Shown piece after piece: positions 14,714 through 34,618 of a stretch of DNA of 64,000 nucleotides; position 1 is the stretch's first letter; the number at the start of each line of letters is the position of its first letter. The notes below the pieces were generated by a model. That model saw nothing but the letters and a program-made list of their open reading frames with translations, did no database searches and was not told the origin of the DNA. Position numbers and translations under genes: made by a program. The stretch comes from an uncultured Gammaproteobacteria bacterium (GTDB taxonomy: Bacteria; Pseudomonadota; Gammaproteobacteria; GCA-001735895), in assembly GCA_964480635.1 (NCBI GenBank), contig CAYZQE010000001.1, positions 8,812 to 72,811 of the forward strand. The letters are read 5' to 3'.

Positions 14714-14728
14714 ATTAATTTATGTCTA

Positions 14729-15775
14729 TTATCGTTTAGACGCCAGCTCTAATATTTTTTCTGCGATGCCATGTAAAGGCATTACAAAATCAGCATGACC
14801 TCGTTTGACGCATTCACCTGGCATTCCCCACACGACACTGGTCGCTTCATCTTGAGCAATGGTAGGTGCGCCTGCTGCTCGCATTGTACCCATCGCTTCA
14901 GAACCATCAGCGCCCATACCAGTGAGCATAATACACATTGCATTTTTGCCCACATTTTTAGCCACCGAGTTAAACATCACTTCAACTGAAGGTTTATGTC
15001 GATTGACTGGATCAGTATCGAGTAATCGACAAATAAAACGAGCGCCATCTCTAATCACTTCTAAGTGCTTATCACCTGGTGCGACATAAGCATGCCCAGG
15101 TAAAATTTGCTGCCCATTTTCAGCATGGTGCACTGTCATTGATGAATTAGCATCTAAACGCTCTGAAAATGACTGACTAAAAGCAAGTGGAATATGCTGT
15201 GTGATAACAATGCCGGGGCAATTACTGGGTAACTGGCATAACACATCTTTTAAAGCCTCGGTACCGCCTGTCGACGCACCAATAGCAATGACCATATCGG
15301 TCGTTTTAAAGCTGCTTGAACTAAAGGTTGATTGGGTAGCCGCCGTACTTTTGGGTACAGCAGCATTTAACCCCCTCACTTTTGCCATCGCCGCTGTTTT
15401 AACTTTTTGTTTTATCTCAGCGGCATAAGCCAGCATTTCTTCTTTTACGTTAACCTTTGGCTTAGACACATAATCAACAGCACCTAATTCAAGTGCCTCA
15501 AGCGTTACATCAGCACCCGCTTCCGTTAAGGTAGAAACCATAACCACTGGCATCGGACGAAGTCGCATCAAATTACGTAAAAAAGTGACGCCGTCCATTT
15601 TGGGCATTTCAACATCGAGGGTTAAAACATCGGGGTTTAATTTTTTAATTTTTTCGCGTGCTACAAGCGGGTCTTGCGCCGTACCAATGACTTCAATTTC
15701 TGGATCAGACGACAATATTTCCGTCATCAACTGACGAATTAATGCTGAATCATCGACTATTAATACCTTAACCAT
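14729..15775 (-). CDS. cheB: chemotaxis response regulator protein-glutamate methylesterase CheB (REC + methylesterase)
   Basis: An N-terminal receiver ([11 protein letters not shown]...D) is fused to a methylesterase domain with a GASTGG region. The protein is 348 aa. Confidence 0.9.
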
Positions 15776-15800
15776 AAAATTCCACTTTTAAATAAATTAT

Positions 15801-16427
15801 TTACTGAAACATATCCACATCACCCGATGTATCTGATGAACTTAGTTTAGATTTATAACTCACTTCACGCTTAACAATTGTGTCGTTATGTAAATCCTTT
15901 AATTTTTTAACTCTAACTTTTCCTGTTAGAGGGTTATATAGTACCTTTCTTGGGTTTATGCCACCCACATCTTCAGCTTTTATGTCAAAACCTTCTAAAA
16001 CGATAAATGATTTAACAAAATCAATATTACTCTGACCAATATCAGTCATCGCTTGCATAATTCGAGAACCACCAAATATTTTTATTTCTAAATTTTCCTT
16101 TTTACCACCATGTTTCAGAATATCATTAATCATATGCTCCATGGCATAGTTACCATAACGAGTTGCTAAACTATCTAGCTCAGTTTTAGAGGTCCATTTT
16201 TCTTTATTCGTCAGCGGCAGTAAAAAATGATTCATTCCCCCAATACAGTTTACTGGATCACGAATACATGCCGATACACATGATCCTAAAACAGTTGTAA
16301 TGAGCTCTTTACTTTTACTCACATAATATTCACCTGGTAAAATTTTCGCAGCATAAACATCATTTCGTTTATCCCAATAACGATTTACGTGATTAAAGCC
16401 AGGCAGTATTTTAGGCAGGTCATGCAT
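15801..16427 (-). CDS. cheD: chemoreceptor glutamine deamidase CheD
   Basis: It is 208 aa and sits between cheR and cheB as in cheR-cheD-cheB (F7/Che2-type) clusters. It has a conserved Cys (GSCVSAC). Confidence 0.8.
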   Translation of the reverse strand: MHDLPKILPGFNHVNRYWDKRNDVYAAKILPGEYYVSKSKELITTVLGSCVSACIRDPVNCIGGMNHFLLPLTNKEKWTSKTELDSLATRYGNYAMEHMINDILKHGGKKENLEIKIFGGSRIMQAMTDIGQSNIDFVKSFIVLEGFDIKAEDVGGINPRKVLYNPLTGKVRVKKLKDLHNDTIVKREVSYKSKLSSSDTSGDVDMFQ

Positions 16428-16483
16428 TATTTAGTTGAATATCACATCAAAAGCTAAGCCCAACTAGGCTCAACATTTTTCGA

Positions 16484-17311
16484 CTATGATTTTTGATAGA
16501 TTGTTTTGCCAAGTAAATCATATTGTTCTGAAATACCATGTAGTGATTCTGAATGCCCCATAAGCAAATAGCCATTTTTTTTCAATTGATTATAAAAACG
16601 ACCAACTAGACTCACTTTGGTTTCTTTATCAAAATAGATCACCACATTGCGACAAAAAATCACATCCATTTTTTCATTAATCGACCAAGGCTTTAATAAA
16701 TTCATCTGGTTAAAGCGAACCAATGATTTAACTTTATCATTCATTTTAATAAAGCCAGCATTACTGCCCGCACCTTTTTTCATGTGCGTTTTAACACGTT
16801 TAGGGTCTAAACTATCAATCCGCTCTACATTATAAACGCCCGCCTTAGCCGTTTTTACGACATTAGAGTCAATATCAGTCGCATAAATTTTTATATCCCA
16901 TTGGTCAATATCTTTAATCGAATCAACTATGGTCATGGCAATTGAATACGGCTCTTCACCGGTTGAACACGCGGCTGACCATATGCGTATGCTTTTATCG
17001 TTGTTTTTTATTTTTTCAGCAACAAGAGTCTCCGCTAAAAAGTCAAAATGATGTTCTTCTCGATAAAAAGCCGTTAAATTGGTGGTGACAGCATTTACCA
17101 ATTCAATGCTCTCAGTTGCTAAGTTATTGGCTAAAAACTGGCGGTAAGCAGCAAAGTCTGGTAATTTTAATTTTCGTACTCGACGCGACAGACGAGAGTA
17201 ATACATGGTGTACTTGCCTTCATCCGAAATAATGCCTGTTTCTGTCTTAACAACTCCCCTTAAAAAATTAAAATCATCTTGAGTGAATTTAAATTCTTTA
17301 TCTTGCTCCAT
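16484..17311 (-). CDS. cheR: chemotaxis protein methyltransferase CheR
   Basis: It is 275 aa with a SAM-methyltransferase fold signature (IWSAACSTGEEPYS). Confidence 0.85.
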   Translation of the reverse strand: MEQDKEFKFTQDDFNFLRGVVKTETGIISDEGKYTMYYSRLSRRVRKLKLPDFAAYRQFLANNLATESIELVNAVTTNLTAFYREEHHFDFLAETLVAEKIKNNDKSIRIWSAACSTGEEPYSIAMTIVDSIKDIDQWDIKIYATDIDSNVVKTAKAGVYNVERIDSLDPKRVKTHMKKGAGSNAGFIKMNDKVKSLVRFNQMNLLKPWSINEKMDVIFCRNVVIYFDKETKVSLVGRFYNQLKKNGYLLMGHSESLHGISEQYDLLGKTIYQKS

Positions 17312-17313
17312 GT

Positions 17314-17877
17314 TTAAAAGAACTCGATATCGTTTTCTAAATCTTCTTTATGGGCTTCGTTGAAAGCATGAATCGCATCCCGCACATCGACACCATCCAT
17401 CACCGCTTGAAACATTTCAACTTCTTCACGCATGCTATATTTTGACTTTATTTTTTCTTGTAGCGCTTTCCATTCATAGGGGTTAAATATTTTCGACGTG
17501 TCGCCAACTAATTCTGACAACGCTTCTACGCTAGAACTTACATGCGCTAAGCGTTGGGTTAATTTATCGTAAAATTGAAAGGCAACAATAGCGCCTTGCA
17601 TTGTTTCACTTACTTTATCAGCATTATGAGCGATTGTTTTTCGTATCACTTCAGTTTCAGGTGTTGGTGGTAAATCTTCTACTGCCATTTTAATGACATT
17701 TTCATAACCGATCATGGAGGTAAAGGCATCGGTTAAATGCAGTACTGAATCATCACTTTCCCTTAATGCTATCTCAATTTGAGCGGTTGCTAAAAACAGC
17801 ATGCGAACAGTTTCTCTCACTTGGCTCCAGTCTAAATCGGGCGCTACCGCATTTGATGGCTTACTTTCACTACTCAT
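17314..17877 (-). CDS. acidic hypothetical protein (187 aa) embedded in the chemosensory operon; C-terminus ...DIEFF
   Basis: It is tightly packed between cheR and the STAS-repeat gene. It is helical and acidic, with an 'FQFYDKLTQR' segment faintly reminiscent of the CheZ active-site 'QDLTGQ'. I make no confident family assignment. Confidence 0.45.
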   Translation of the reverse strand: MSSESKPSNAVAPDLDWSQVRETVRMLFLATAQIEIALRESDDSVLHLTDAFTSMIGYENVIKMAVEDLPPTPETEVIRKTIAHNADKVSETMQGAIVAFQFYDKLTQRLAHVSSSVEALSELVGDTSKIFNPYEWKALQEKIKSKYSMREEVEMFQAVMDGVDVRDAIHAFNEAHKEDLENDIEFF

Positions 17878-17909
17878 TTTGTATCCTCATTATTATTTTT
17901 ATATCTGGC

Positions 17910-18818
17910 TTAAAAAAACCCAGAACTTCCGTCATCTGCATCTTTAGGTGGCATATTTTCTTCGAAAAAACCAAAGCAGGCTTCTTTACTTTTAGGCGCT
18001 AAAATAGGCATTCCAATCATTTCTGCCGAATCATTAATGACCGTGCTAGTACCAATCCATTTAATATGATGCCCTGTCTGACTTAATGTTTCTTTTAGGC
18101 TATATAGCAACTGTAAGCCTGCTGTATCAATCTTTATCATTTCATCTGCATTGATTATTATTTCTTCATCGGCTGAGATCAAACTGGCGATTTGATCCTT
18201 TACTTCAGCAACTGTTTTTATCGTGAGCTCTGAACCTAAATTAATCGCATCTTCTTTTGAAATATCTAATGTTTCCATATTTGTCGCCTCTAAAACGCTG
18301 TTATCGTCGTCAGTAAAAAAACCAAAGCCATCTTCTGATGAGGTGTCCTCTACTTTAGGGCTATTTAACTCTTCTGCAAAAAAACCAAAACCATCTTCTG
18401 CTGATGTATCTTCTGCTTTAGATGTGACTGGCTCTTCTTTAAAAAAACCAAAGCCATCTTCCGACGAGCTGCCCTCTTCTTTAGAACTCTTTGATTCTTC
18501 TGAAAAGAAGCCGAAACCATCTTCTGCTGATGTATCTTCCACCTTAGAGTCATTTGACTCTTCAGTAAATAAACCAAAGCCTTCACTGCCATCGGTATTC
18601 GTTACTTCCTTAACAGCCTTATTCTTAGCTTTCTTTTTTACTGTTTTCTTTACCGAATTTTTAGCCGCTTTCTTTACTATTTTCTCTGTCTTACTGACCG
18701 CTTTTTTAGGCTTTGATGTTTTTTCAGTTGGCTCATTTTTACCTTCTGACGCGTCAGGCTCTTTTAACCATGCTAAAGGATCATAGTCTAAAACTGATTT
18801 TTTTTTCTTTTTAACCAT
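17910..18818 (-). CDS. repeat-containing STAS-domain protein: polybasic K-rich N-terminus, five 21-aa acidic repeats with a core EDGFGFF, and a C-terminal STAS (anti-sigma-antagonist-like) domain
   Basis: The repeats are read directly from the translation. The STAS signature is 'DTAGLQLLYSL'. The C-terminal tail carries two more FGFF/GFF motifs. Confidence 0.6.
   Translation of the reverse strand: MVKKKKKSVLDYDPLAWLKEPDASEGKNEPTEKTSKPKKAVSKTEKIVKKAAKNSVKKTVKKKAKNKAVKEVTNTDGSEGFGLFTEESNDSKVEDTSAEDGFGFFSEESKSSKEEGSSSEDGFGFFKEEPVTSKAEDTSAEDGFGFFAEELNSPKVEDTSSEDGFGFFTDDDNSVLEATNMETLDISKEDAINLGSELTIKTVAEVKDQIASLISADEEIIINADEMIKIDTAGLQLLYSLKETLSQTGHHIKWIGTSTVINDSAEMIGMPILAPKSKEACFGFFEENMPPKDADDGSSGFF
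18306..18593. repeat. tandem 63-bp in-frame coding repeats (about 5 copies) encoding the EDGFGFF repeat units
   Basis: The DNA shows near-identical units ttcttctgaaaagaagccgaaaccatcttctgctgatgtatcttc and ttctgcaaaaaaaccaaaaccatcttctgctgatgtatcttc. The shadow ORFs on other frames are artefacts of this repeat. Confidence 0.7.
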
Positions 18819-18820
18819 GA

Positions 18821-19312
18821 TTATTCCATTTCAGCTATCGTTTCAAACTCTTCAGAATCCAACAAACGTTCGGAATCCACTAACATGACCATATGTTCTT
18901 CTTTAGTCACCATGCCAATGACATAATCAGTATTAATCTTACTCCCCAAACTCGGAGACACTTTAATTTCATCTCGAGTCACCGACAACACGTCTGACAC
19001 GGCGTCTACAACTATACCCATCATGTGACCATCCTCTTCACCCACTGTTAATACAATAATGACCGTTGTAGGGTGATATTCAATATCATTAAGATTAAAT
19101 CTAATTCTTAAATCAACAATAGGTACAATGCTGCCACGTAAATCTAAAACACCTTTAATAAAATCAGGCGTATTATGTAATTCCCGTATTTTTTCCCAAC
19201 CTCTAATTTCCTTAACCTTCAGAATATCTATTCCATAGTCTTCTTGACCTAAGGTAAAGGTTAAAAACTCTAGCCTTTCATTTAGGTTATCGGTTTGATT
19301 TTGCTCTGACAT
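18821..19312 (-). CDS. cheW: chemotaxis coupling protein CheW
   Basis: It is 163 aa with a CheW-like domain (TFTLGQEDYGIDILKVKEIRG...GVLDLRGSIVPIVDLR). Confidence 0.9.
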   Translation of the reverse strand: MSEQNQTDNLNERLEFLTFTLGQEDYGIDILKVKEIRGWEKIRELHNTPDFIKGVLDLRGSIVPIVDLRIRFNLNDIEYHPTTVIIVLTVGEEDGHMMGIVVDAVSDVLSVTRDEIKVSPSLGSKINTDYVIGMVTKEEHMVMLVDSERLLDSEEFETIAEME

Positions 19313-19318
19313 AATTTA

Positions 19319-21883
19319 CTAACCTTTTATTTTTTGCTCAATCGACGTAAGGTTTGCCACCACTTGCGTTGAGCATACAGTTACTTTGTTATATAGGTTT
19401 TCTGCGCTATCGCAATCGCCACCTTCCTTTGCATCAATAATAGCTGAAATATAGCTGTGCATTTCTTTATGCGTTTTTTCCATATCCAGCAATTCTTGAT
19501 GCTCGCCATAAACTCTTAAGCCATCGGCATACAACCATTTACCTAAATCGCAATGTCTATGTGACACGGCCTGCTCTTGTGTTAACTCTTCTTTATCATC
19601 TAGAAATTTTCTTAGTCGTTCTTTCCATGCTAAGTGCTTCGTTTTAGCTAATTTAAAGTCTAAGGTACTTGTGGCAACTGCTTTAACAATATCTGTTTTA
19701 AAGAACTGCATTTGGCCATTCATGGTATTCGACTGCTCAGACATATGTGTACTGGCTGCTGACGCTTCTTCTGCTAAAGCGGCATTTTGCTGTGTTAAAT
19801 CATCAAGGCCGGTTAGGGCTTTACTAACTTGATCAACCCCTGTTGATTGCTCGGCACTAGCCGCTGCAATTTCACCAACAATATCGCTTACTTTTTTTAC
19901 ACCTAAAACAATGTGACCTAATGTTTCACCTGATTCATTCACTAAGTCAGAACCTGCTTTCACCTTATTAACACTATCTTGAATTAACTCTTTAATTTCT
20001 TTTGCAGCGGTTGCTGAACGCTGTGCTAAATTACGCACTTCAGTTGCTACAACTGCAAAACCACGGCCTTGATCACCGGCTCTAGCAGCTTCTACACTCG
20101 CATTAAGCGCCAACAAATTAGTTTGAAAAGCAATTTCGTCAATGACGCTAATAATTTCTGCTATTTTACTACTCGATTGGTTAATCTCTTCCATCGCATT
20201 AATAGCATCAGCAACCACATGACCACCCTTATCTGCAGTGTCCCCTGCTTCTGCTGCTAATTGGTTTGCTTGCGCGGCATTACCCGCGTTTTGTTTTACT
20301 GTCGAAGTTATTTCTTCCATGCTTGCCGCCACTTCTTCTAGTGCAGTTGCTTGCTGCTCTGTACGGTTTGATAAATTATTGTTACCCGAAGCAATTTCTT
20401 GCGAGGAATTATTAATCTGATTCGATGAATCCCTAATGCCATTCACGATATCTCTTAATTTAACAATCGTCTTATTCACATTATCTTTAACTTCACCGAA
20501 CACACCATCATAAGCTCGATCAATCGTTTGCCCTAGATTACCACCAGCAACGCCTGACATAACTTGATTAACATCTGCAAAGGTTGCTTCTAACACATCC
20601 AACATTTCATTTAAGTTAACTGATAAATTTTTGAAAAAACCAACCTGGCTAGTCGCATTCAGTCGCGAACTTAAATTACCCGATTGAGCAGCAACCACTA
20701 GATGCTCAATCTCTTTTTCAAAATTACGCTCAATTGTTAAATCACGCCACTCCAAGATAGTGCCAACGCGCTGGCCATCTTGAATCACGGGACTCGAATT
20801 AATACTTAATACTCGACGACCTAATGACTTTTCTTCTGTATGACTATTTTTTAATCCATCTAATAATCGACGTTGTTTTACCGCATCATTATAAAAGATG
20901 TCTAAAGGTGTGCCCAAAAGTTTTTCGGCATTAAAGCCTGTTACTTGCTGAGAAATATCGTCAGTCGCATCTTTAAACATCGACTTAATCGTTTCATTTA
21001 AATAGATAATATTATAATTTTGATCAACTAACATAACGTTCGATCCCGCATTATCTAACGCTGATTGAATACGCTGGCCAGCTGTTGCTTTTTCACGCGC
21101 ATCCATCACATCAAAGCCTAAACGCACTTGCAATGTAAACAACCGTCTTAATAAACTACCCATATCATCTTTACGAGAAATATCAGTCCAGTTAAAATAT
21201 TCTCCTCGACTTATCTCTGATATTTTATCGTATAGATAGTCCATTGGTTTACTGATTTTTTTTACTAAAAAAATACCTAAGACCAAAAAGATAATCGCTA
21301 AACCTAACATTAGCTGAGCGACAAATATCACCTCGACCCCCCTCATCAATAGGATACTCATGAGTAACATGACGAGAGAGAAAAAACCGACTCCAATATA
21401 TTGAAGACCAACAGATGATAACGACTGAAACTTTTCTATTAACGCACCAAAGCCTGTTTTTGTTAAAGTTTCTTGGCCTGAATTAACCTGTTGATAAAGC
21501 TTTTCTGCATCGCTTATCTGTTGGTCTGTAGGTCGTGTTCTTACTGACATATACTCAACAATACTGCCATCCTGATAAATAGGCGACACATTGGCATTAA
21601 CCCAATAATAATCACCATTTTTAGCCCTATTTTTAATGGGTGCTGTCCATGGGATTTTCTTATTAAGATCATCCCATAAAGATTGAAATGCTTCTGATGG
21701 CATGTCTGGGTGTCGTACTAAATTATGATTCTTACCCATCAATTCGTCATAACTAAACCCACTAATTTCCATGAATTCTTTATTACAATAGGTAATAACC
21801 CCTTTTAAATTTGTTTTTGAAACCAAAATAGACCCTTCACGCATTTTGACTTCGTTATTCGTTACTGGCTCATTAACTTTCAT
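19319..21883 (-). CDS. methyl-accepting chemotaxis protein with an Aer-type N-terminal PAS (FAD) domain, TM hairpin, HAMP, second PAS, MA domain and a C-terminal CZB (chemoreceptor zinc-binding) domain
   Basis: The N-terminus ([33 protein letters not shown]...[16 protein letters not shown]) closely matches the E. coli Aer PAS. The MA tip is [30 protein letters not shown]. The C-terminus ([11 protein letters not shown]...H...H) is a CZB motif. Confidence 0.85.
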
Positions 21884-21908
21884 TCTTTAAATTCCTTAGA
21901 GTTAATTA

Positions 21909-24641
21909 TTAGAATTCATCCCAATCATCAGATGATTGTAAATCTATTCCTTTTTTGGCTACTGAATTTTTTGTTTCTATTTCGGGCTGCTTCTTTTCTG
22001 ACGGCTTCTTTTCTGGCTCTTCATCAAAAATCATTGGCTCATTAAAATGTACCCTTTTATTGTCTACATTTCCGCTGTCATCAATTTTAAAGAAGCTGAC
22101 ATCTTGTTGCATAATTGAAGACCGTTCTGACAAATTAATACTTGCTGCCGTCACTTCTTCCGCTAAAGTCGCATTTTGTTGAGTGAGCGTATCCATTGAT
22201 GTGATGGCAATATTGACTTCTTGAATGCCTTTTGATTGCTCTTCACTGGCTGCCGCGATTTCAGAAATAATGTCTACCACCTTTCTCACGCCAGTTTCAA
22301 TGTCAGCTAGCGATTGCCCTGAGTCATTGACAAGTTTTGACCCTGCTTCCACCTTAATAACACTATCGTTTATTAACTCTTTAATTTCTTTTGCTGCGGT
22401 TGCAGAACGTTGCGCTAAATTTCGAACTTCTGTTGCAACGACGGCAAAACCCCTGCCTTGATCACCCGCTCTTGCAGCTTCTACACTAGCATTCAGTGCT
22501 AATAAATTTGTTTGGAAAGCAATTTCATCAATCACACCGATTATGTCGGCAATCTTTGTGCTTGATTCATTAATCTGTGCCATCGCATCAATGGCATCAT
22601 GAATAACACTGCCACCCTCTTGAGCTATATGTTGGGCTTCTTTTGCTAAACCATTTGCCATTATTGAATTAGACGTATTTTCAGACACAGTTGCTGTTAA
22701 TTCAGCAATACTCGCGGCGGTTTCTTCTAAGGCTGCGGCTTGCTGCTCAGAGCGCATCGATAGATTTCCGTTACCTTCCGCGATCTCATTAGAAATTCCA
22801 TCAATCACACTGGCGCTGGTAATAATTTTTTTGGTTATTTCACGTAAATTGATGACGGTCTTAGCGGCTGCTTGCTCAACTTTGCCAAAAATGCCGACAT
22901 TGACTTCATTAACATCCTTTGTTAAATCACCTTTTGCGAGTGTTTGCATGGATTCGTTTAATGAATTTAAGGCGTTTTCGACAATGACTAATAGCTCATT
23001 AGTATTTGAGCTTAAGGTTGCAAAGAAACCTGTTTTATTAGACAAATCAATTTTAGTCGCTAAGTCACCCCCCATAGCAAGAGATACAACATTAGCAATC
23101 TCTGACTCCATAGAAATCTCTAAGGTTTTATCTTGAATTTCATAAACCTTACCAAGTAACTCTCCATCATCTGCAAAAATTTTATTTGAAGTAACCAATA
23201 AGGTATTACCCTGATATAACACTTTTTGTTTATCACATTCTTCATGCTCACTCAGAAAAACATCATGTGTTAACACACTACTTGCTGCGCCATTTTCTAG
23301 TGACAATTGATCAACTTTGTCATACAACTCTTGAGCCATGTTATTAACATAAACCACTTTATTTTTATTATCTATAACCAGAACATTCCCAGAAATGCTA
23401 TCTAATGCTGTTTTTACTCGTGCATTTTCACGTGAAATTAAACGCTCAGTATCAATACTGTCTTTCAATTCCTTTTGCATATGACCCAACGACTTGAAGA
23501 GTTGCCCAAATTCATCAGTCGATTTAACTATAATATTGTTATTTAAATTTCCTTTAGCAATTTCTTTGGCCAAACTAACCGCCCAATTTAATGAATGTGT
23601 AATCAAACGACTTAAGAACCAAGCGATCAAAAGCGCCATGACTATCACTACAACTAACACTATATAAAATTGTTTTGATTGAGCAGTGTAAATATTGTCA
23701 ACGTGTTCTTGGGCTAGCGATATGTTTTCTTTTTGACGATAAATTAATGCGTCTATTTTTTCTTTTATGCTCAGTAATAAGGGTGTGACTTGCGTTTTTA
23801 CAATGTAAGCGTCTTGACGCCATTTATCACTATTATGAAGCTCAATTAACTGACCAAAATTATTCATGAATTGTGTTTTTAAAGCTATAAATTGCTCTAA
23901 AGAGTCTGATTGATCTAAAGTTAATAAGTCATCATCATTTTGTAGTACCAACAACCTTTCGACCATAGCATCAACATTGCTGCTATATAACTTAATATTA
24001 TCAATAGCCGCGGGGGCTTTGAAGGCTAAAAATAAACGTAATTCAGTCATCACACTGGCCCAGCTATACCTTAATTTATGAATTAAAGTTATCACCTCTT
24101 TTCGCTCTTCAATGTATTCTTCTTCGTCTTCAGAGCTTAGCATTTGCCCTAATAACTGTAACAGCTCCCTATTTAAAGGGTTAATTTTTTCTTGGGCAAA
24201 GCCCACTGCCAAAATATTGAGATTATTGTCTTTCGATAAGGCCAACAACCTGGGTTTAATTTTTTGAATGGCCTCAACGTCAACGGCTATTTTATTGATT
24301 AATTCGACAGATTGTTGATCAGCCGCTATTGCCTTTTCTTTTTTTAGTGACTTCATGGTGATCGTGATACGGTTTAAACCCACCACAAAACTTTGTTCTT
24401 TATCCGCATCACCGGTCAGTAAATAAATACCCATCGCTCCAAAAACAGCTTCTATTTGGGCATTTAAAAGGCCTGCTTTTTCGACAGCCACTTGATTTTC
24501 AGTAGACACTGTTTGAAAGGTTTCATACACCAAATTTAAACTATTATTAGAACTGACGGCTTTTAGCACAAAAATACTAACGACCACCATAAAGCCTAAA
24601 GAAATTTTATATCGGATTGATAAATTATTAAAAAATTGCAT
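21909..24641 (-). CDS. methyl-accepting chemotaxis protein (910 aa): periplasmic sensor domain, HAMP, PAS, MA domain, and a C-terminal DDWDEF pentapeptide-like tail
   Basis: Two TM helices flank an approximately 300-aa periplasmic region. The MA tip is conserved. The protein ends in ...SSDDWDEF. Confidence 0.85.
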   Translation of the reverse strand: MQFFNNLSIRYKISLGFMVVVSIFVLKAVSSNNSLNLVYETFQTVSTENQVAVEKAGLLNAQIEAVFGAMGIYLLTGDADKEQSFVVGLNRITITMKSLKKEKAIAADQQSVELINKIAVDVEAIQKIKPRLLALSKDNNLNILAVGFAQEKINPLNRELLQLLGQMLSSEDEEEYIEERKEVITLIHKLRYSWASVMTELRLFLAFKAPAAIDNIKLYSSNVDAMVERLLVLQNDDDLLTLDQSDSLEQFIALKTQFMNNFGQLIELHNSDKWRQDAYIVKTQVTPLLLSIKEKIDALIYRQKENISLAQEHVDNIYTAQSKQFYIVLVVVIVMALLIAWFLSRLITHSLNWAVSLAKEIAKGNLNNNIIVKSTDEFGQLFKSLGHMQKELKDSIDTERLISRENARVKTALDSISGNVLVIDNKNKVVYVNNMAQELYDKVDQLSLENGAASSVLTHDVFLSEHEECDKQKVLYQGNTLLVTSNKIFADDGELLGKVYEIQDKTLEISMESEIANVVSLAMGGDLATKIDLSNKTGFFATLSSNTNELLVIVENALNSLNESMQTLAKGDLTKDVNEVNVGIFGKVEQAAAKTVINLREITKKIITSASVIDGISNEIAEGNGNLSMRSEQQAAALEETAASIAELTATVSENTSNSIMANGLAKEAQHIAQEGGSVIHDAIDAMAQINESSTKIADIIGVIDEIAFQTNLLALNASVEAARAGDQGRGFAVVATEVRNLAQRSATAAKEIKELINDSVIKVEAGSKLVNDSGQSLADIETGVRKVVDIISEIAAASEEQSKGIQEVNIAITSMDTLTQQNATLAEEVTAASINLSERSSIMQQDVSFFKIDDSGNVDNKRVHFNEPMIFDEEPEKKPSEKKQPEIETKNSVAKKGIDLQSSDDWDEF

Positions 24642-24674
24642 GAATTAAATCTCTCTCATCCTACTTATTATGAC

Positions 24675-27389
24675 TTAAAATTCTTCCCATTCATCAGCCG
24701 CAGGAGCAGATGGCTCTGGTATCGCTACTGGTGACGAAGTGGGCTTTGATTCACTAGAGGGTGCCTCTTTTTTCAGAGCAGAAGGTGCTTTTAAACTAGT
24801 CTGCGCATCAGATTCAGTTAATTTAAAGTACGTCATTTGCTCTAACATATCATTGGCTCCCTGTGTCATATTGACACTGGCTGCCGATGTTTCTTCTGCT
24901 AACGCTGCATTTTGTTGCGTCATCTCATCCATACTGGCTACCGCAGTATTCGCTTGTTCAATACCCGCTGTTTGCTCTTCACTGGCTGCTGCAATTTCGC
25001 CGACAATATCGCCTACTTTTTTAATGCCTTGAACAATTTCATCCAATGTTTCACCTGATTCATTCACCAAAGAAGAACCAATTTCTACTTTTTTAACACT
25101 ATCTTGAATGAGTTCTTTAATCTCTTTTGCAGCAGTTGCTGAACGTTGCGCTAAATTTCTAACCTCGGTTGCCACAACAGCAAAGCCTCTACCTTGCTCA
25201 CCAGCGCGGGCAGCCTCAACACTCGCATTAAGGGCTAATAGATTAGTTTGGAAGGCAATTTCATCAATCACTCCAATAATTTCTGCAATTTTGTTACTTG
25301 AACTATTGATTTCAGTCATCGCCTTAATCGCGCCTTCTACAACATCACCACCTTTATTGGCAACTTCTCTTGCCGATGCTGCTAAAATATTAGCTTGTTG
25401 TGCGTTATCTGAATTTTGCTTTACGATTGAGGTCAATTCTTCCATGCTGGCAGCGGTTTCTTCAAGAGCACTGGCTTGCTGATCTGTACGACCTGAAAGA
25501 CTATTATTACCCGAGGCTATTTCTGTTGATGCATTGGTCAAATCTGACGTAGAACTGCGTATTTCTCCAATCACTCGGGCAAATTGAACAATGGTTTCAT
25601 TCACATGATCGCTGACCTCGCCAAATGTTCCGCCATAATTATTTTCTATGTGTTTGGTTAAGTCACCGTGAGACAGTGCTGACATGACATTTTTAATGTC
25701 ATCTAATGTATTAGAAATTTCGGCAACCATGTCATTAATACCTTCACTTAAATTAAGGAAGAAACCTGATTTGCCTTGAGTTGCAATGCGTTGATCTAAA
25801 TCACCAGATTTAGCGGCGACTACTATTTGTTCGATTTCTTTTTCGACATTAACTTCTATTGTTCTATCTTCCCATTCCACTACGGTACCAATACGCTCAC
25901 CGTCATCACTCACAACAGGGTTCGCAATAAATCGCATATTATGACCGCCAACAAGAAAATCAGCTTCATGACGCGACTCTAACATTTTAACCAAGCCTCT
26001 TTGGTAACTTGACTCTTTATTAAAAATATCCATATTTGAGCCAACCAAGCTATCAACTGAAAATGCGGGTAAATCTTTAACAATACCTTCTTCTGCATTT
26101 CTAAACATAGAAATAGCAGCATCGTTCATATAAATAATGTCATTTTTTTGATTCACGAGCATGACATTTGCGCTGACATTATCGAGAGCCTGTCTAATAC
26201 GTGAATTCTCTCGACTAATGACCGCATCACTTTCAATGCGCTCTTTAAGGCCTGTTTGCATCGTCTTTAACGAGCCCAACATATTACCCAATTCATCCGT
26301 ACTATTGACGGTGATAGCCCCTGTTAAATCACCCTTAGCTATTTTTTGTACCATATTTAATGCACTAGCAACCGACTCTCTAATGCCTTTTTGGACGATA
26401 TAACCTAAAAACAATGTAATCAGAATTGAAAAAATAGACACTAATGCCGCTGAAATCAATGTCGAGCTTGCTGTATCGCCCATTTCTTTTGATTTATTAA
26501 TTAATGATGTCGTTAAGCTATCTGCAACTTTATTTAATAAATTGATTTTTCCAGTTTGCTGCTGAACCCATTCATCTGGCTCTATGCCAAAAGCACCGTA
26601 ATCTGATGCTTCAAAGGCCTTAGCCCTCATTGCGGCCGTTTTATCAACATATTCACCAACCATTGTGGCGATATAAAGTTCTTTTTGTTGAGCGCTTGCC
26701 AACGAAAGGTAAACGCTTTCATAAACATTTTGCCCGTTGACCGCATTATTAAAATCTGAAAAATTAGCACCTACAAATTGATCGTTTTTAAACACTTGGG
26801 CAAGCACTTTACGCTCTGTAATGGCTAAACTTTTTATGTGTAAAAAATTAGAATAAGATGCCGAAATAATCGCGGCTTCTTTACTGGGGCTCATGGCGGG
26901 TAATAAGCCAATCACATCAAGTAAACTTGAGCTCAGTTGCTTATAAAATGCTGCCGCTTTATTGCGTTTTAATTTTTTATTGTTAATAGCGCTGCGCTTA
27001 TCGTCAATAGTTGCTAACATTTCTTGAGAGCTAGCAACTTGTGCGCTAAAGACATCCGTTACTGCATTATTATCTATGTCATTTAAGGCACCTTTTAGAT
27101 TACTAATGGCTTTATTAGTGTTGCCTCGAGCATTCTCTATTTCTTCGCCAAACTTTTTACCTCTGGCTCTTTGGTACTTTTCGGTAATATTTTTTTCAAT
27201 AACCAATACATCCAATAGCTTATTCGTTGCAATAGCCATTTCAATTAAATTGCTCATCGCCGCAGCTTCTGACGCTGTGTTTTGTGCATTTAGAAACTGT
27301 TTACCCGAAAAAAATACTAAGCTAACTAATGGAATGATTAACATCAATCCTAGTTTTTTACCCAATTTCATATTATTAATTAAATTCAC
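24675..27389 (-). CDS. methyl-accepting chemotaxis protein (904 aa): large periplasmic sensor (NIT-like?), HAMP, PAS, MA domain, and a C-terminal ADEWEEF tail
   Basis: Its architecture resembles the preceding MCP. It ends in ...PAADEWEEF, which resembles the GWEEF CheR-tethering pentapeptide of Pseudomonas McpB/Aer2. Confidence 0.85.
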   Translation of the reverse strand: MNLINNMKLGKKLGLMLIIPLVSLVFFSGKQFLNAQNTASEAAAMSNLIEMAIATNKLLDVLVIEKNITEKYQRARGKKFGEEIENARGNTNKAISNLKGALNDIDNNAVTDVFSAQVASSQEMLATIDDKRSAINNKKLKRNKAAAFYKQLSSSLLDVIGLLPAMSPSKEAAIISASYSNFLHIKSLAITERKVLAQVFKNDQFVGANFSDFNNAVNGQNVYESVYLSLASAQQKELYIATMVGEYVDKTAAMRAKAFEASDYGAFGIEPDEWVQQQTGKINLLNKVADSLTTSLINKSKEMGDTASSTLISAALVSIFSILITLFLGYIVQKGIRESVASALNMVQKIAKGDLTGAITVNSTDELGNMLGSLKTMQTGLKERIESDAVISRENSRIRQALDNVSANVMLVNQKNDIIYMNDAAISMFRNAEEGIVKDLPAFSVDSLVGSNMDIFNKESSYQRGLVKMLESRHEADFLVGGHNMRFIANPVVSDDGERIGTVVEWEDRTIEVNVEKEIEQIVVAAKSGDLDQRIATQGKSGFFLNLSEGINDMVAEISNTLDDIKNVMSALSHGDLTKHIENNYGGTFGEVSDHVNETIVQFARVIGEIRSSTSDLTNASTEIASGNNSLSGRTDQQASALEETAASMEELTSIVKQNSDNAQQANILAASAREVANKGGDVVEGAIKAMTEINSSSNKIAEIIGVIDEIAFQTNLLALNASVEAARAGEQGRGFAVVATEVRNLAQRSATAAKEIKELIQDSVKKVEIGSSLVNESGETLDEIVQGIKKVGDIVGEIAAASEEQTAGIEQANTAVASMDEMTQQNAALAEETSAASVNMTQGANDMLEQMTYFKLTESDAQTSLKAPSALKKEAPSSESKPTSSPVAIPEPSAPAADEWEEF

Positions 27390-27449
27390 TCTTCCACCTT
27401 TCTTACTTTAAGTTTTTACTTTTTTGTATTATATTTTCATGACTGAGTT

Positions 27450-27959
27450 CTATTCTTCTTCTATCTCAACAACTTCATCATATAAATCAGGTGATTTTAA
27501 AAATTCAACGGCATCAAACAGCATGACCATTTGTCCATCTGAATCAGCTAGACCCTTTATAAAGTCAACATCAATACGGTCTGAAAACTCTGGAGTTTTT
27601 CTTATTTTACTTTTTTCAGCATTCAGAACATCTGAAACAGCATCAACAACAATACCTGCAATACGCTCTTTTTCTTGAACTTCGCCTCGCAAAATAATTA
27701 AGACTGTTGTTGCTTCATAAGTCACATGCTCACAATGGCTTTTCATTCTCATATCAACGATGGGGACTGCTGTACCACGCAAATTAAGAACGCCTTTGAT
27801 ATATTTTGGTGTATTAGGAACTCGGGCTACCGACTCCCATCCTCTTATTTCTTGAACACTCAGTAATTTAACACCATATATTGACTCACCAACTGTATAG
27901 GTTAGATATTGTTCAAAGTCTTCATTTTGAGATAAATCCTGGGTTGCTTCTTCACTCAT
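27450..27959 (-). CDS. cheW: chemotaxis coupling protein CheW
   Basis: It is 169 aa with a CheW-like domain. Confidence 0.9.
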   Translation of the reverse strand: MSEEATQDLSQNEDFEQYLTYTVGESIYGVKLLSVQEIRGWESVARVPNTPKYIKGVLNLRGTAVPIVDMRMKSHCEHVTYEATTVLIILRGEVQEKERIAGIVVDAVSDVLNAEKSKIRKTPEFSDRIDVDFIKGLADSDGQMVMLFDAVEFLKSPDLYDEVVEIEEE

Positions 27960-27961
27960 TG

Positions 27962-30076
27962 TTATGCCGCCACATCAGTTTTATCGCTCTTCTTTTCAAG
28001 CTTTTTGTTCAGAGTTAAAATCCCGGGCATATCGATAATAAGCGCGACAGAACCATCACCTAAAATAGTGGCCCCTGAAAAACCTTCTATTTTTTTGTAA
28101 TTACTTTCTAATGATTTGATCACCACTTGCTGCTGCCCTAGTAATTCATCAACAAACAAACCTACGTGTTTGTTTTCAACTTCAACAACTACCAATAGCC
28201 CATCTTTTAGATCAACAGGTTTTTCTAGTTCAACACCAAAAATGTCATGCAGCTTTATAATGGGGACGTATTCTTCTCGTAGCTTGAATGTTTCTCCCTG
28301 CCCCCCAACCATATTGACCATATCAGGTTGTATTTGGATTGACTCTACAATTGAAATAATAGGGATAATGTAATTTTCATTACCAACAGAGACTGTTTGT
28401 CCATCGACAATTGCTAGGGTTAATGGCAAACGAATTCGCATTGTACTGCCTTTTCCTAACGCTGAATCAATCTCGATTGAGCCCCCAAGCTCTAAGATAT
28501 TTCGACGAACCACATCCATGCCAACACCACGGCCAGACACATCACTAACAACCGCAGCTGTTGAGAAGCCCGGCAAGAAAATCAATTCAAATATTTGACG
28601 ATCAGTTAAAATATCACCTTCGATAATAAGCCCCTTTTCGACTCCTTTTTTATATAAAACATCCTTATCCATACCTTTACCATCATCGATAATTTCGATA
28701 ACAATATTACCGCCTTGGTGATAGGCATTTAAATTTATTGTTCCTAACTCTTCTTTACCTGCTGCCACACGATCTTCTGGCATTTCAATACCATGATCTA
28801 AACTGTTACGCACAAGATGTACGAGAGGGTCACCAATTTTTTCAATAACTGTCTTGTCTACTTCAGTTGCCTCACCCGAAAGAATCAATTCTATCTTCTT
28901 GCCCATTTTTCCTGATAAATCACGAACCAAACGTGGAAAACGTGAAAAGGTAAAACTAATCGGCATCATTCGAACTTGCATCACGCTTTCTTGCAGCTCA
29001 CGTGAATTACGCTCTAACTGCATCAAACCATCGCGTAAACGGTCTATTTCAGCGACATCAATTGATCCTCTTTCTTCAATGTTTTCACCAATTAAACCTA
29101 GCATTGATTGAGTAATCACTAACTCACCCACCATATTGATCAAAGCATCAATTTTATCGGTATCTACTCTTATAGAGGCATTAGCTTGAGCTGCTGGTTT
29201 TTTACTTCCTCTTCGGTCATTCTTACGGCGATCACCACCTTTGGCCTTTTCACTGTCTGCACTATCACCATCTCTTCTTTGAGGAATGGGTAATTGTGAC
29301 TTTTCTGCCGGCTTCACCCCATCTGCTTGTGCATTGCCATCTTGTAATGCAATAATTTCTAAATCACAAAGGTCTTCAACCCAAGCAAAAATCTCACTGA
29401 GCACATCTTTATCTGCATCCGTTATTATTTTCAATTCCCAACTGATATAACTTTGTTCAGCATCGAGCATTTCAAAGGGCGGTATCGCATTTAAATCTGT
29501 TGTCAGCTCTACTTCACCTAGTGATGAAAGCTCTCTTATTAATGGTAATGGATCATTACCCGTATGAAAAATATCGCTGTTTGGCTTAAACTTTATCAAC
29601 CAACCTTGGCCAGGCGAGTCACCTGCCGTTACGGCTTTAGTAGGAGCGTTTGTTTCTTCTTTAGCCGCTAAATTTTCGCCAGCAGCTTCATTACCCAGTT
29701 CTTTTTCGAGCATTGCTTTATGCTCTTTAACACGTGCTTCGTCTGGGTCATCGCCTTCTTGCGCGGCTTCTAGCATTTCTCTTAAACAGTCGGTTGACTT
29801 TAATAGAAGGTCTGAATTTGCAACAGTAACATCACGCTTACCATCTCGCATTTCATCAAGAAGCGTTTCCATGACATGGGTAAACGAAGCGACTTCCATA
29901 AAGCCGAAAGTACCCGAACCACCCTTTATAGAATGAGCGGCTCTAAAAACACTATTAATAACCTCAGAATCAGCTTCACCTGGCTCTAAATCCATTAATC
30001 CGGTTTCCATAATTTCGATGCCTTCGAAACTTTCTTCAAAAAACACCTGATGAAACTGAGCCATATCTATCGACAT
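27962..30076 (-). CDS. cheA: chemotaxis histidine kinase CheA (P1-P5)
   Basis: It has a P1 HPt (FRAAHSIKGGSGTFGF), P3 dimerisation (IRVDTDKIDALINMVGELV), a P4 HATPase with G1/G2 boxes, and a P5 CheW-like domain. Confidence 0.9.
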   Translation of the reverse strand: MSIDMAQFHQVFFEESFEGIEIMETGLMDLEPGEADSEVINSVFRAAHSIKGGSGTFGFMEVASFTHVMETLLDEMRDGKRDVTVANSDLLLKSTDCLREMLEAAQEGDDPDEARVKEHKAMLEKELGNEAAGENLAAKEETNAPTKAVTAGDSPGQGWLIKFKPNSDIFHTGNDPLPLIRELSSLGEVELTTDLNAIPPFEMLDAEQSYISWELKIITDADKDVLSEIFAWVEDLCDLEIIALQDGNAQADGVKPAEKSQLPIPQRRDGDSADSEKAKGGDRRKNDRRGSKKPAAQANASIRVDTDKIDALINMVGELVITQSMLGLIGENIEERGSIDVAEIDRLRDGLMQLERNSRELQESVMQVRMMPISFTFSRFPRLVRDLSGKMGKKIELILSGEATEVDKTVIEKIGDPLVHLVRNSLDHGIEMPEDRVAAGKEELGTINLNAYHQGGNIVIEIIDDGKGMDKDVLYKKGVEKGLIIEGDILTDRQIFELIFLPGFSTAAVVSDVSGRGVGMDVVRRNILELGGSIEIDSALGKGSTMRIRLPLTLAIVDGQTVSVGNENYIIPIISIVESIQIQPDMVNMVGGQGETFKLREEYVPIIKLHDIFGVELEKPVDLKDGLLVVVEVENKHVGLFVDELLGQQQVVIKSLESNYKKIEGFSGATILGDGSVALIIDMPGILTLNKKLEKKSDKTDVAA

Positions 30077-30274: not shown

Positions 30275-31474
30275 ATGCAAAAGCACAGTGTAAAAATAGG
30301 TAATATTTTTGTTGGTGGGAATCATCCCGTCATGATCCAATCAATGACCAATACAGATACTGCTGACATTAATAAAACAGTAGAGCAAATTAAAGCTTTA
30401 GCTGATGCGGGTTCTGAATGCGTGCGGGTGACGGTTAACAACAATGAATCTGCTGCTGCCATACGTCCTATTAAAGAAAAGCTGTTACAACAAAATTACA
30501 CCACACCTATCATTGGTGACTTTCATTTCAATGGACATAAATTATTAAAAAAATATCCTGAGTGCGCTGAGTTTTTAGATAAATACAGGATCAACCCAGG
30601 CAATGTTGGCAAAGGAAAAAAAAGAGACTCTCAATTTCATGAAATGATTGAAACTGCTTGTCAATTTAATAAACCTGTCCGCATTGGGGTCAACTGGGGG
30701 AGTTTAGACCAATCCCTTTTAGCGAATCTTCTGGATACTAACTCTGCTTTAAAAATACCGAAACCTTTAACCGACATCAATAAAATTGCGGTTATTCAAT
30801 CAGCCCTTGAGAGTGCAAAAATGGCTGAACATATTGGTTTAGGTAAGGATCAGATTATTATTAGTTGCAAAATGAGCCGAGTGCCTGACTTAATTGATGT
30901 GTATGAAAAATTAAACGCCCAATGTGACTATGCCTTACATTTAGGTTTAACTGAGGCGGGCATGGGCAGTAAAGGCATCGTATCTTCTACTGCTGCACTG
31001 TCTATTTTACTCAGGCAAAACATAGGTAACACGATTAGAATCTCGTTAACACCTGAACCTGGTGAAGCCCGAACAAAAGAAGTGCAAGTGGCTCAAGAGA
31101 TATTACAATCACTCGATTTACGATCGTTCACACCGAGTGTTGTTTCATGCCCCGGTTGTGGTCGAACGAGCAGTGAGTATTTTCAAGTGCTTGCTAAAGA
31201 TATTCAGCAACAGCTCAACGACAATATGTCTAGCTGGAAATACAGCCATCCAGGTGTCGAAAAAATGAACGTGGCGATTATGGGCTGCGTTGTTAATGGC
31301 CCAGGTGAAAGCAAACATGCCAATATTGGCATTAGCCTACCGGGAAATGGAGAGCTACCTGTCGCACCTGTTTATGAGGATGGTAAAAAAACAGTCACCT
31401 TAAAAGGTGACTCAATTGCTAATGAGTTTATGCAGTTAGTTGAAAATTATGTCGCTCGAACTTATTCGCAATAA
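30275..31474 (+). CDS. ispG: 4-hydroxy-3-methylbut-2-enyl diphosphate synthase (IspG/GcpE)
   Basis: Conserved IspG blocks are [49 protein letters not shown] and YEDG. It is on the opposite strand to all flanking signalling genes. Confidence 0.85.
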
Positions 31475-31506
31475 TTAAGCGACAGATTGTATTGCTTTGA
31501 ATATTT

Positions 31507-31812
31507 TTAAAGGATATTCAAAATCTCACAAGCCACTTCAAATTTAATAGGCACTGATCCTTCAATAGGAATAGAGCGAATAACAGATGCTCTTGCTTCC
31601 ATAGGCGGCGTAATCGAATTAACAGGCGTCAACTTCACCAATAATTCTGACTTAGGCTCAAACTCATCTTCTAACTCTAATAAAAAACCTTTCGCGCTTA
31701 AATTTTTAACACCACCTTCACCTGATCGACTATCTGCCTCACAGCAATACGTCATGACACATTCAATGGCCATCCTTTGGAAGTCGCGTTTTTCATCATA
31801 ATTATGATCCAT
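31507..31812 (-). CDS. single-domain PilZ protein (c-di-GMP binding)
   Basis: It has the RxxxR motif (RDFQRM) and the D/NxSxxG motif (NLSAKGF). It is 101 aa. Confidence 0.6.
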   Translation of the reverse strand: MDHNYDEKRDFQRMAIECVMTYCCEADSRSGEGGVKNLSAKGFLLELEDEFEPKSELLVKLTPVNSITPPMEARASVIRSIPIEGSVPIKFEVACEILNIL

Positions 31813-31827
31813 AAAATTTCCCCTCAG

Positions 31828-32142
31828 TTAAATTTTAAATAATTTACCAAAGTTGGCAACGTCTAATATTTTTTTAACATCTACGGATGTATTAACAATA
31901 TCAACTTTAGAGCTTTCCCCACCTGCATGTTCTCTCAGTAATAAAAGCATACCTAAAGCGGAGCTATCTAAATATTCAGTCGCCGACAGATCGACAACAT
32001 AATGCACACCATTCCCATCTGTTTCATCATATGATGTTCTAAATTCATCATATAACTGAAAGTCAAACTTACCTGATACTGATATTGTTACTTTTTTACC
32101 GCCATCTGCGATCGTACTATTTATTGCCATCAATGACTCCAT
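31828..32142 (-). CDS. STAS-domain protein (SpoIIAA-like anti-sigma factor antagonist)
   Basis: It is 104 aa and carries the conserved phosphorylatable-Ser region 'VDLSATEYLDSSALGMLL'. Confidence 0.7.
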   Translation of the reverse strand: MESLMAINSTIADGGKKVTISVSGKFDFQLYDEFRTSYDETDGNGVHYVVDLSATEYLDSSALGMLLLLREHAGGESSKVDIVNTSVDVKKILDVANFGKLFKI

Positions 32143-32245: not shown

Positions 32246-32249
32246 TTCC

Positions 32250-34255: not shown

Positions 34256-34618
34256 CTAACCCAAAGCGCGTTTTATCACTGACAGCAATTGGTCCGGATT
34301 AAAAGGCTTTACAATCCAACCAGTAGCTCCGGCATTTTTACCTGCCATTTTCTTATCTGCAGCTGATTCGGTTGTAAGCATTAATAAAGGAGTGAATTTA
34401 AAACTAGGTAGCTTTCTTAACTCTGCGATAAGAGATATACCATCCATATTTGGCATGTTTACATCCGTTATCACTAGATCAAAACTCTTTGTTTTCGCAA
34501 TATTTAATGCGACCAACCCATCTTCGGCATCAGTCACATCATAACCAGCACTTTTTAATGTAAATGAAACCATTTGTCTCATTGATGCTGAATCATCAAC
34601 AGCTAAAATTGTAGCCAT
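34256..34618 (-). CDS. single-domain response regulator (CheY-like receiver)
   Basis: It is 120 aa with a REC domain. Its residues include DD (ILAVDDS), the phospho-acceptor D (LVITDVNMP) and the T/K pair. Confidence 0.8.
   Translation of the reverse strand: MATILAVDDSASMRQMVSFTLKSAGYDVTDAEDGLVALNIAKTKSFDLVITDVNMPNMDGISLIAELRKLPSFKFTPLLMLTTESAADKKMAGKNAGATGWIVKPFNPDQLLSVIKRALG

Follow-up and report, generated by a model that had tools for sequence, protein, structure and literature searches.

How a chemosensory kinase passes on its signal when no response regulator is encoded beside it is the question raised by a che cluster at positions 14729-30076 of a 64-kb stretch of DNA from an uncultured Gammaproteobacteria bacterium (GenBank contig CAYZQE010000001.1; hereafter, the window). 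Gene order, strand and coordinates were taken from open reading frame (ORF) calls and Pfam, with further NCBIfam scans, and they confirm the order cheA-cheW-MCP-MCP-MCP-cheW-[STAS]-[acidic]-cheR-cheD-cheB (MCP, methyl-accepting chemotaxis protein) given in a preliminary description of this DNA (Table 1). That description had also noted that cheY is missing beside cheA and that the nearest CheY lies about 4 kb off, beyond ispG. This is correct: by ORF calls and Pfam no REC gene of the window flanks cheA, and the nearest single-domain REC (34256-34618) is 4.2 kb away. The whole window encodes three REC domains, in this distal CheY, in the CheY of a neighboring F6 system (43377-43784) and in CheB. 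The preliminary description had further proposed that one ancestral locus was split. Our analysis makes it likely that a single F7 system of ancestral type, resembling 'stage 1', has been re-sorted into two minus-strand operons around an inverted ispG. For annotation this carries a lesson, namely that a che cluster 'without cheY' is possibly just re-sorted.

The locus was compared with relatives collected by a CheA scan with one genome per species, which gave 80 loci whose CheA is 55-70% identical to that of the window; the ORFs of each locus were called and then labelled by BLASTP against the window proteins. Among the 77 loci with at least 600 bp of sequence flanking cheA, cheY lies directly upstream of cheA in 68 and a divergent ispG in 8, with one further locus unresolved. 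The contiguous loci belong to the more distant relatives (Sedimenticola, Chromatiales, tubeworm symbionts and many Methylococcales; CheA 55-62% identical) and follow the order cheY-cheA-cheW-MCP(s)-cheW-ParA-STAS-(187-aa gene)-cheR-cheD-cheB-McpA-like-STAS. Eight of the nine closest relatives (L001-L009, metagenome-assembled genomes (MAGs) of Gammaproteobacteria; CheA 64-70% identical) share the split layout of the window, and in the ninth, L003, the sequence upstream of cheA is too short to show its layout. Their genes run GGDEF, CheY, ParA, McpA-like, STAS, PilZ, inverted ispG, cheA, cheW, zero to two MCPs and cheW, followed by the STAS protein, the 187-aa gene, cheR, cheD, cheB and a HAD hydrolase. 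Still closer relatives, found via the 187-aa protein and CheZ (L083, L085, L088 and L090), have the same layout, and the position and orientation of ispG are the same in L001, L002, L004-L009, L085 and L088. The interruption by ispG is thus found in the closest relatives and not in the distant ones, and within the clade that these closest relatives form, the split is fixed.

The genes beyond ispG have their counterparts inside the contiguous clusters. The distal CheY of the window is 67-81% identical to the cheA-adjacent CheY of the 68 relatives, its ParA 38-51% to the in-cluster ParA of contiguous loci, its McpA-like receptor 33-42% to the McpA found there, and its small STAS protein 39-53% to the product of the STAS gene that follows McpA. 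CheY, ParA, McpA and the small STAS protein are therefore orthologues of genes that sit inside a single cluster in more distant relatives. Placement differs sharply between the two layouts, with ParA lying between cheW and cheR in 43/45 contiguous loci versus 0/7 split loci, and McpA following cheB in 35/40 contiguous loci versus 0/5 split loci. Because the orthologues of the distal genes sit within the cluster in distant relatives and are split off only in the closest ones, we conclude that the ancestral locus was in all likelihood contiguous and that the clade of the window re-sorted its genes into two operons. The preliminary description had regarded a cheY adjacent to this cheA in relatives as evidence against a split. 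Such a neighbor is indeed what most relatives have, yet it is the orthologue of the distal cheY and therefore supports the split rather than refuting it.

A simple insertion of ispG between cheY and cheA was considered and rejected. More than this is needed because ParA and McpA-STAS changed place too: the former left the middle of the cluster and the latter its end, to become operon mates of cheY. The ispG gene, which is transcribed divergently from cheA and stands inverted between two minus-strand gene sets, is a spacer with no functional part in the system. As for the gene set beyond it, the GGDEF, ParA, STAS and PilZ genes of the upstream module had been recognized before and are present, while the 402-aa MCPsignal protein among them had been overlooked. 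The two genes of the cheA operon that had been singled out as extra and non-canonical are not oddities of the window, as both are recurrent members of this cluster type.

Sequence comparison places the system in class F7, of the ancestral 'stage 1' type, which makes it a known kind in a new arrangement. The assignment draws on identities to Escherichia coli proteins versus the F6 paralogues of the window, on receptor class, on the best matches among solved structures and on the layout in Methylotuvimicrobium buryatense. Over its entire length, the Hpt-to-dimerisation region included, the F7 CheA shares 41% identity with its E. coli counterpart (486 bits), whereas its alignment to the F6 CheA of the window scores 293 bits and is good in the C-terminal half only. 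The first CheW is 40% identical to E. coli CheW and 28% to the F6 CheW, the second CheW (CheW2) 53% and 33%, respectively, and CheB is 53% identical to its E. coli counterpart. For the distal CheY the identities are 42% to E. coli CheY and 35% to the F6 CheY of the window, which is itself 64% identical to the E. coli protein. This pattern of CheY and CheA identities is the one described for E. coli, in which a CheY of F6 origin joins an F7 core (Ortega et al. 2020, PMC7184735).

The best solved match of CheR is the pentapeptide-binding CheR of Salmonella (1AF7/1BC5; 198 bits versus 133 for 5Y4R), and that of the distal CheY is the 120-aa CheY4 of Vibrio cholerae (4H60/4HNR; 133 bits versus ~80 for E. 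coli CheY). In translation, the distal CheY retains every phospho-acceptor residue (DD, D52, T82 and K103). The receptors MCP1-MCP3 (MCPsignal E about 1e-53 to 1e-56 in Pfam) align with Tar and Tap without indels over the whole signalling domain and are therefore of the 36H class. The 402-aa receptor does not align in this way; indels relative to Tar indicate a non-36H signalling domain, and the protein has an N-terminal transmembrane (TM) hairpin and no periplasmic domain. Its GEIELF tail fits the McpA tails EIELF, DIELF and EVELF in Supplementary Table 12 of PMC7184735, including that of Shewanella oneidensis SO_2117 (EIELF). Pentapeptide tails, which had been ascribed to the receptors of the cluster in general, are confined to MCP1 (EWEEF) and MCP2 (DWDEF), as MCP3 ends in a CZB domain and carries no pentapeptide.

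Several features expected of 'stage 1' are in place, including two cheW genes, a cheR-cheD-cheB block, and an mcpA-like receptor gene followed by an anti-sigma-factor antagonist, the McpA-STAS pair being relocated to the cheY operon; a cheY directly upstream of cheA is absent from the window. The M. buryatense locus (L060) has the 11-gene layout published for the F7 'stage 1' cluster of M. alcaliphilum, and its CheA is 58% identical to that of the window. Its receptor is Aer2-like with PAS/2TM/HAMP/PAS/HAMP, as published for M. alcaliphilum F7, and MCP3 shares this layout. The likeness to F7, to Che2 and to Vibrio cluster III seen earlier is thus borne out by the CheA, CheW, CheB, CheR and CheY matches together with the 36H receptors.

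The closest described systems are the stage 1 F7 clusters of M. alcaliphilum (MEALZ_2869-2879) and V. cholerae (cluster III, VCA1088-1096) (Ortega et al. 2020, PMC7184735). With these the window shares F7-type CheA, CheW, CheR, CheD and CheB, two cheW genes, Aer2-like 36H receptors with pentapeptide tails, an McpA-like receptor with a [DE][IV]ELF tail, STAS genes of the anti-sigma-antagonist kind, a 120-aa CheY, and the coexistence of F7 with a full F6/flagellar cluster. It differs from them in that cheY lies away from cheA in a cluster split by an inverted ispG, with ParA, McpA and STAS moved into the cheY operon; in that the locus lacks a serine phosphatase or anti-sigma-kinase gene and has GGDEF and PilZ added; and in the number of its receptors, three, of which two have a periplasmic sensor domain. 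The 'stage 2' F7 systems, Che2 of Pseudomonas aeruginosa (PA0173-PA0180) and Che1 of S. oneidensis (SO_2117-2126), also have the cheR-cheD-cheB block, a 36H Aer2/McpB receptor whose pentapeptide tethers CheR2 and CheB2, and an McpA with a conserved non-pentapeptide tail, and in Shewanella there is a link to a STAS partner switch (CrsA/CrsR). Unlike the window with its two-cheW stage-1 arrangement, they are uninterrupted, have only one cheW and keep cheY next to cheA.

Clusters of this type repeatedly carry three accessory genes, for a ParA-like ATPase, for a STAS protein that has GFF tails and a basic N-terminus, and for a member of a large unannotated family related to McpA. The parts of the F7 literature available to us (PMC7184735 among others) do not discuss them: the main text of PMC7184735 makes no mention of a ParA-like gene and its stage-1 gene list holds no counterpart of the 187-aa gene, and the available published descriptions of Che2 and Che1 mention neither a ParA-like gene nor a STAS protein with GFF repeats nor a 187-aa counterpart.

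The 302-aa STAS protein had been described as a 'STAS-repeat' protein; it contains a single STAS domain, and what is repeated are acidic 21-aa GFGFF units instead. Its basic N-terminus carries a DYDPLAW motif and is followed by a Lys-rich stretch, the GFGFF repeats, the STAS domain and a C-terminal GFF. The repeats are encoded by a 63-bp tandem repeat present in 4.3 copies (18310-18581; 81% matches when treated as a 126-bp unit). Relatives in the clade have between 2 and 7 GFF motifs, the window having 7, and this variation suggests repeat expansion and contraction. The majority of these motifs match the tether pattern x-[HFYW]-xx-[HFYW] known from the literature. In most contiguous clusters the homologous gene directly follows ParA, and the 45 homologues whose features were examined have a basic N-terminus, then a [YHF]DPL[AS]W-like motif, an acidic linker and one STAS domain, with a C-terminal GFF in many. 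The two genes overlap or abut in the loci examined, sharing one base in L072 and L089 and four bases in L016. L060 and L065 have no ParA and their STAS protein has no N-terminal motif, and as these loci are closely related they represent one event. We propose that the 302-aa protein may be the partner of ParA or an adaptor to the array.

The ParA-like ATPase carries the motif KGGVGKT. Two known pairs offer a comparison, ParC/ParP of Vibrio and Pseudomonas F6 systems and PpfA/TlpT of Rhodobacter sphaeroides: as in these, relatives of the window encode a ParA-like ATPase with a deviant Walker A motif inside the che cluster, immediately followed by a partner-like gene whose product has a basic N-terminal peptide. 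Here, however, the putative partner has a STAS domain and not a CheW-like or MCP domain. The ATPase also differs from ParC, being 27% identical to the F6 ParC of the window, and its role here in positioning is a presumed one.

The 187-aa acidic protein belongs to a family annotated as hypothetical only, for which more than 1060 homologues were found and which comprises 1267 clusters at 50% identity. In its AlphaFold2 model (pLDDT 79), helices 13-67 and 73-125 pair into a long hairpin, and the rest is made up of short helices and a disordered tail. All 124 representatives have Q101, D104 and Q108, which form the motif QF-D-xxx-Q, and 120/124 have the C-terminal F187 of the DIEFF tail. The family has in common with McpA an SF..L helix, an LQF-D...Q (LQFED...Q) helix and a [DE][IV]E[LF]F tail. 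When its profile was aligned by hhalign with full-length McpA, the probability was 48% (E 1.8e-4); with the kinase-control tip of McpA spliced out (residues 136-294, the splice points having been picked from eight trial combinations), it rose to 95% (E 5.6e-8). Control scores were 9-17 for shuffled columns, 16.5 for the reversed profile, ~22 for Aer2/Tar-like receptors and 14.8 for CheZ. In an hmmsearch of 4170 locus ORFs, all matches listed after the true members (>15) were McpA-like. Pfam and the translation reveal neither an MCPsignal match nor a hydrophobic segment in the 187-aa protein and, lacking both the signalling tip and a membrane anchor, it is therefore not a receptor. It is best read as a putative soluble, 'headless' relative of the McpA stalk and tail.

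An unlikely alternative is a phosphatase role like that of CheZ, with the F7 CheY as substrate, in which a hairpin dimer inserts Q108 into the active site of CheY and the DIEFF peptide tethers CheY as the tail of CheZ does. The protein has a likeness to CheZ (PF04344), as both are acidic and have a long helical hairpin with D-xxx-Q on its second helix (the invariant D104-xxx-Q108 and Q101 here) and an acidic, disordered C-terminal peptide ending in Phe; an initial hhalign run against one CheZ sequence aligned exactly the catalytic motif, and F7 clusters are reported without cheZ (PMC7184735). Against this, 32 members gave no match to PF04344 at E up to 10, and the 124-sequence profile aligned with a 62-sequence CheZ profile at a noise-level hhalign score of 14.8 (probability 0.3%) and off the motif. 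Moreover, the same motif and tail are present in McpA receptors, which are detectably related to the 187-aa family, and no sequence or profile similarity to CheZ was detected. Homology to CheZ is therefore without support, and kinship with McpA remains the preferred reading. The gene is absent from the Methylomonas and Methylotuvimicrobium clusters. In loci of Zoogloea MAGs (L086 and L087; 10001-10567) a 54%-identical homologue directly follows murB with no che genes within 10 kb, so the family is not restricted to che clusters.

The output genes differ between the two layouts. In L089 a CrsR-like REC-SpoIIE-HATPase_c_2 gene follows the STAS gene that comes after McpA, and in L060 the gene after STAS has an HATPase_c_2 match and a response-regulator-like N-terminus; both resemble CrsR of Shewanella. 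A tblastn search of the window and 12 clade loci with the L089 protein returned nothing but REC matches, so that no CrsR-like phosphatase/kinase gene was found in them. In these loci, PilZ takes the place of the partner-switch gene after STAS and occurs at this position in split-type loci only. Full-length orthologues of the GGDEF protein (51-59% identity) likewise lie directly upstream of CheY in split-type loci only. In translation, the GGDEF enzyme has the sequence RNTD, five residues and GGDEF, that is, an intact GGDEF motif and an RxxD I-site, and the PilZ protein has the RDFQR (RxxxR) and NLSAKG (NxSxxG) motifs. From gene adjacency alone, it is a reasonable inference that the output has changed toward cyclic di-GMP (c-di-GMP) in this clade. 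The attachment of GGDEF and PilZ to the CheY/ParA/McpA/STAS operon thus provides a testable hint as to which components are partners and what the output is, as does the separation of the array-and-adaptation genes from CheY, ParA, McpA and STAS.

Other GGDEF genes lie 0.5-2.6 kb upstream of the F7 cheY in the contiguous-type loci L016, L026, L027, L032, L053, L060 and L065, and there may be a recurrent, loose association of F7 cheY with diguanylate cyclases. These genes from other lineages share only the catalytic domain with the one in the window, except in L032, where similarity extends beyond it. An ancient linkage of GGDEF and cheY is accordingly not established, with L032 as a possible exception. 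The GGDEF ORF of the window was called mechanically from a TTG start with 331 aa; as clade orthologues are ~305 aa long and align from residue 26, its true start is probably the ATG at 35708, giving 306 aa.

The neighboring F6/flagellar set runs from 49680 to 38064 with flhA, flhF, flhG, fliA, cheY, cheZ, cheA, parC, parP and cheW. No cheB lies in the gap (40261-40550) between the F6 cheA (40551-42608) and parC in the window, and L090 shows the same gap. In Vibrio and Pseudomonas a cheB lies at this place. The F7 cheB is the sole cheB of the window, and the F7 cheB, cheR and cheD are the only copies in its 64 kb. Perhaps both arrays rely on the F7 adaptation enzymes, or perhaps F6 has copies of its own in another place.

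This proximity invites the idea that CheY and McpA, once displaced, changed kinases and now serve F6 in place of F7, the split then being a re-wiring and more than a rearrangement. In both the window and L090 some 2.3 kb separate operon 2 from the F6 cheW, the F6 cluster is without its own cheB, and F6 arrays of S. oneidensis include McpA-type receptors, as those of V. cholerae and P. aeruginosa reportedly do (PMC9855816). However, the F6 cluster keeps its own CheY-CheZ pair, the CheY being close to that of E. coli. The identity of the displaced CheY to F7 CheYs, given above, shows no signal of divergence, and the F7 CheA aligns with E. coli CheA throughout, from Hpt to the dimerisation region. 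We consider such a re-wiring improbable, more so than the CheZ-like role discussed above. Least credible, and contradicted by the synteny, is the view that the two gene sets are neighbors without being related, one a free-standing c-di-GMP module and the other built on an F7 kinase that lacks a dedicated CheY and signals to CheB only: an oppositely transcribed ispG does stand between the gene sets, and GGDEF and PilZ elsewhere lie outside F7 clusters, but CheY, ParA, McpA and STAS are each orthologous to genes in the single F7 cluster of 68 relatives, and CheY has an F7 protein, V. cholerae CheY4, as its best solved match.

Returning to a single F7 system re-sorted into two operons, we propose the following division of labor. 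Operon 1 (30076 to 14729) would supply the array and its adaptation, with CheA, two CheW, three 36H receptors, CheR, CheD, CheB and two accessory proteins, and its receptors would sense through a NIT domain, a periplasmic domain without family assignment and an Aer2-like PAS/CZB arrangement. Operon 2 (35783 to 31507) would contribute GGDEF, CheY, the ParA-like ATPase, the McpA-like receptor, STAS and PilZ. CheA would phosphorylate the displaced CheY as well as CheB, while the EWEEF and DWDEF tails would serve as docking sites for CheR and probably for CheB too. The array may be positioned by the ParA-like ATPase acting with the 302-aa STAS protein through the latter's basic N-terminus, and the 187-aa protein would probably compete for, or recruit, whatever binds the [DE][IV]ELF tail of McpA. 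In relatives, the output would pass through STAS and a REC-PP2C-anti-sigma-kinase partner switch, and in the clade of the window it would be linked to c-di-GMP via the active-looking GGDEF enzyme and the canonical PilZ protein.

Several points weigh against this proposal. The pairing of CheA with CheY is read from orthology, and the role of ParA's partner from gene adjacency or overlap, the basic N-terminal motif and the one lineage in which ParA and the motif are both missing (L060/L065). As the Zoogloea orphan shows, the 187-aa family is not always found in che clusters. The apparent link to c-di-GMP consists of genes that are neighbors in a single clade, a partner resembling CrsR could be encoded at another place in the genome, and the catalytic domain is all that non-clade GGDEF genes near F7 cheY share, apart from L032. 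A bolder version, which we regard as doubtful, would have the F7 pathway swap its STAS/PP2C/anti-sigma output for c-di-GMP and dock onto an F6/flagellar locus without its own cheB; the 187-aa family would then be a new class of soluble 'headless receptors' that imitate the stalk of McpA and its [DE][IV]ELF tail and so regulate a partner common to both (such as CheY-P, CheD, CheB or CheR), and the GFGFF units would act as multivalent tethers of the pentapeptide type.

Table 1. Features of the two F7 operons and the genes adjoining them, in window coordinates.
Feature	Coordinates	Strand	Evidence
HAD-family hydrolase	14036-14713	same as cheB	starts 15 nt past cheB stop
cheB, methylesterase with REC domain, 348 aa	14729..15775	-	Pfam
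cheD, deamidase, 208 aa	15801..16427	-	Pfam CheD 5.6e-27
cheR, methyltransferase, 275 aa	16484..17311	-	Pfam CheR and CheR_N
187-aa acidic protein	17314..17877	-	no Pfam or NCBIfam match
STAS protein, 302 aa	17910..18818	-	STAS_2 at residues 192-270
Second cheW (CheW2), coupling protein, 163 aa	18821..19312	-	Pfam CheW 3.6e-35
MCP3, Aer2-like 36H receptor: N-terminal PAS, TM hairpin, PAS, HAMP_2, MCPsignal, C-terminal CZB	19319..21883	-	Pfam
MCP2, TM 36H receptor: periplasmic domain without family assignment, HAMP-PAS-HAMP_2-MCPsignal, C-terminal DWDEF	21909..24641	-	Pfam; Tar alignment
MCP1, TM 36H receptor: NIT-HAMP-PAS-HAMP_2-MCPsignal, C-terminal EWEEF	24675..27389	-	Pfam; Tar alignment
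First cheW, coupling protein, 169 aa	27450..27959	-	Pfam CheW 2.4e-29
cheA, F7-type histidine kinase, 704 aa	27962..30076	-	Pfam Hpt, H-kinase_dim, HATPase_c, CheW; NCBIfam E. coli-type CheA 607 bits
ispG, housekeeping isoprenoid gene	30275..31474	+	GcpE 2.5e-115; NCBIfam equivalog 454 bits (cutoff 345)
PilZ protein, single-domain, 101 aa, RxxxR and NxSxxG	31507..31812	-	PilZ 2.2e-7
Small STAS protein, 104 aa, anti-sigma-antagonist type, DSSALG motif	31828..32142	-	STAS_2 5.7e-11
McpA-like receptor, 402 aa, C-terminal GEIELF	32250..33458	-	MCPsignal 3.4e-30
ParA-like ATPase, deviant Walker A, 256 aa	33458..34228	-	AAA_31 1.9e-51
F7 CheY, 120 aa, displaced response regulator	34256..34618	-	REC 4.1e-28
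GGDEF diguanylate cyclase	34788..35783	-	GGDEF 2.9e-44

At the downstream end of operon 1, the HAD hydrolase gene keeps its position after cheB in the clade relatives L004, L005, L083, L085 and L088 and, because this position is kept, it may be co-transcribed with the che operon. At the other end of the region, a FliK-like gene (Flg_hook) followed by a short ORF (35987-37934) stands inverted between the F6 cheW and the GGDEF-CheY operon. The counterpart of the short ORF in L090 has an FlhB-type Bac_export_2 match, and the arrangement is also found in L004-L006, L008 and L090.

A scan of 14000-33900 for promoters and terminators gave counts equal to the shuffled expectation and is therefore uninformative. 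Within the 56-nt gap between cheR and cheD, a hairpin with a 9-bp stem is followed by a T-run on the coding strand (16453-16474); it may act in attenuation within the operon or mark a site of RNA processing, in a region where the terminator count is at chance level. Sigma-28-like -10 elements are present upstream of cheA (GTCGATAA, ~30200) and upstream of the GGDEF gene (TCCGATAA, ~35850), each with a non-canonical spacing to a TAAA -35 element.

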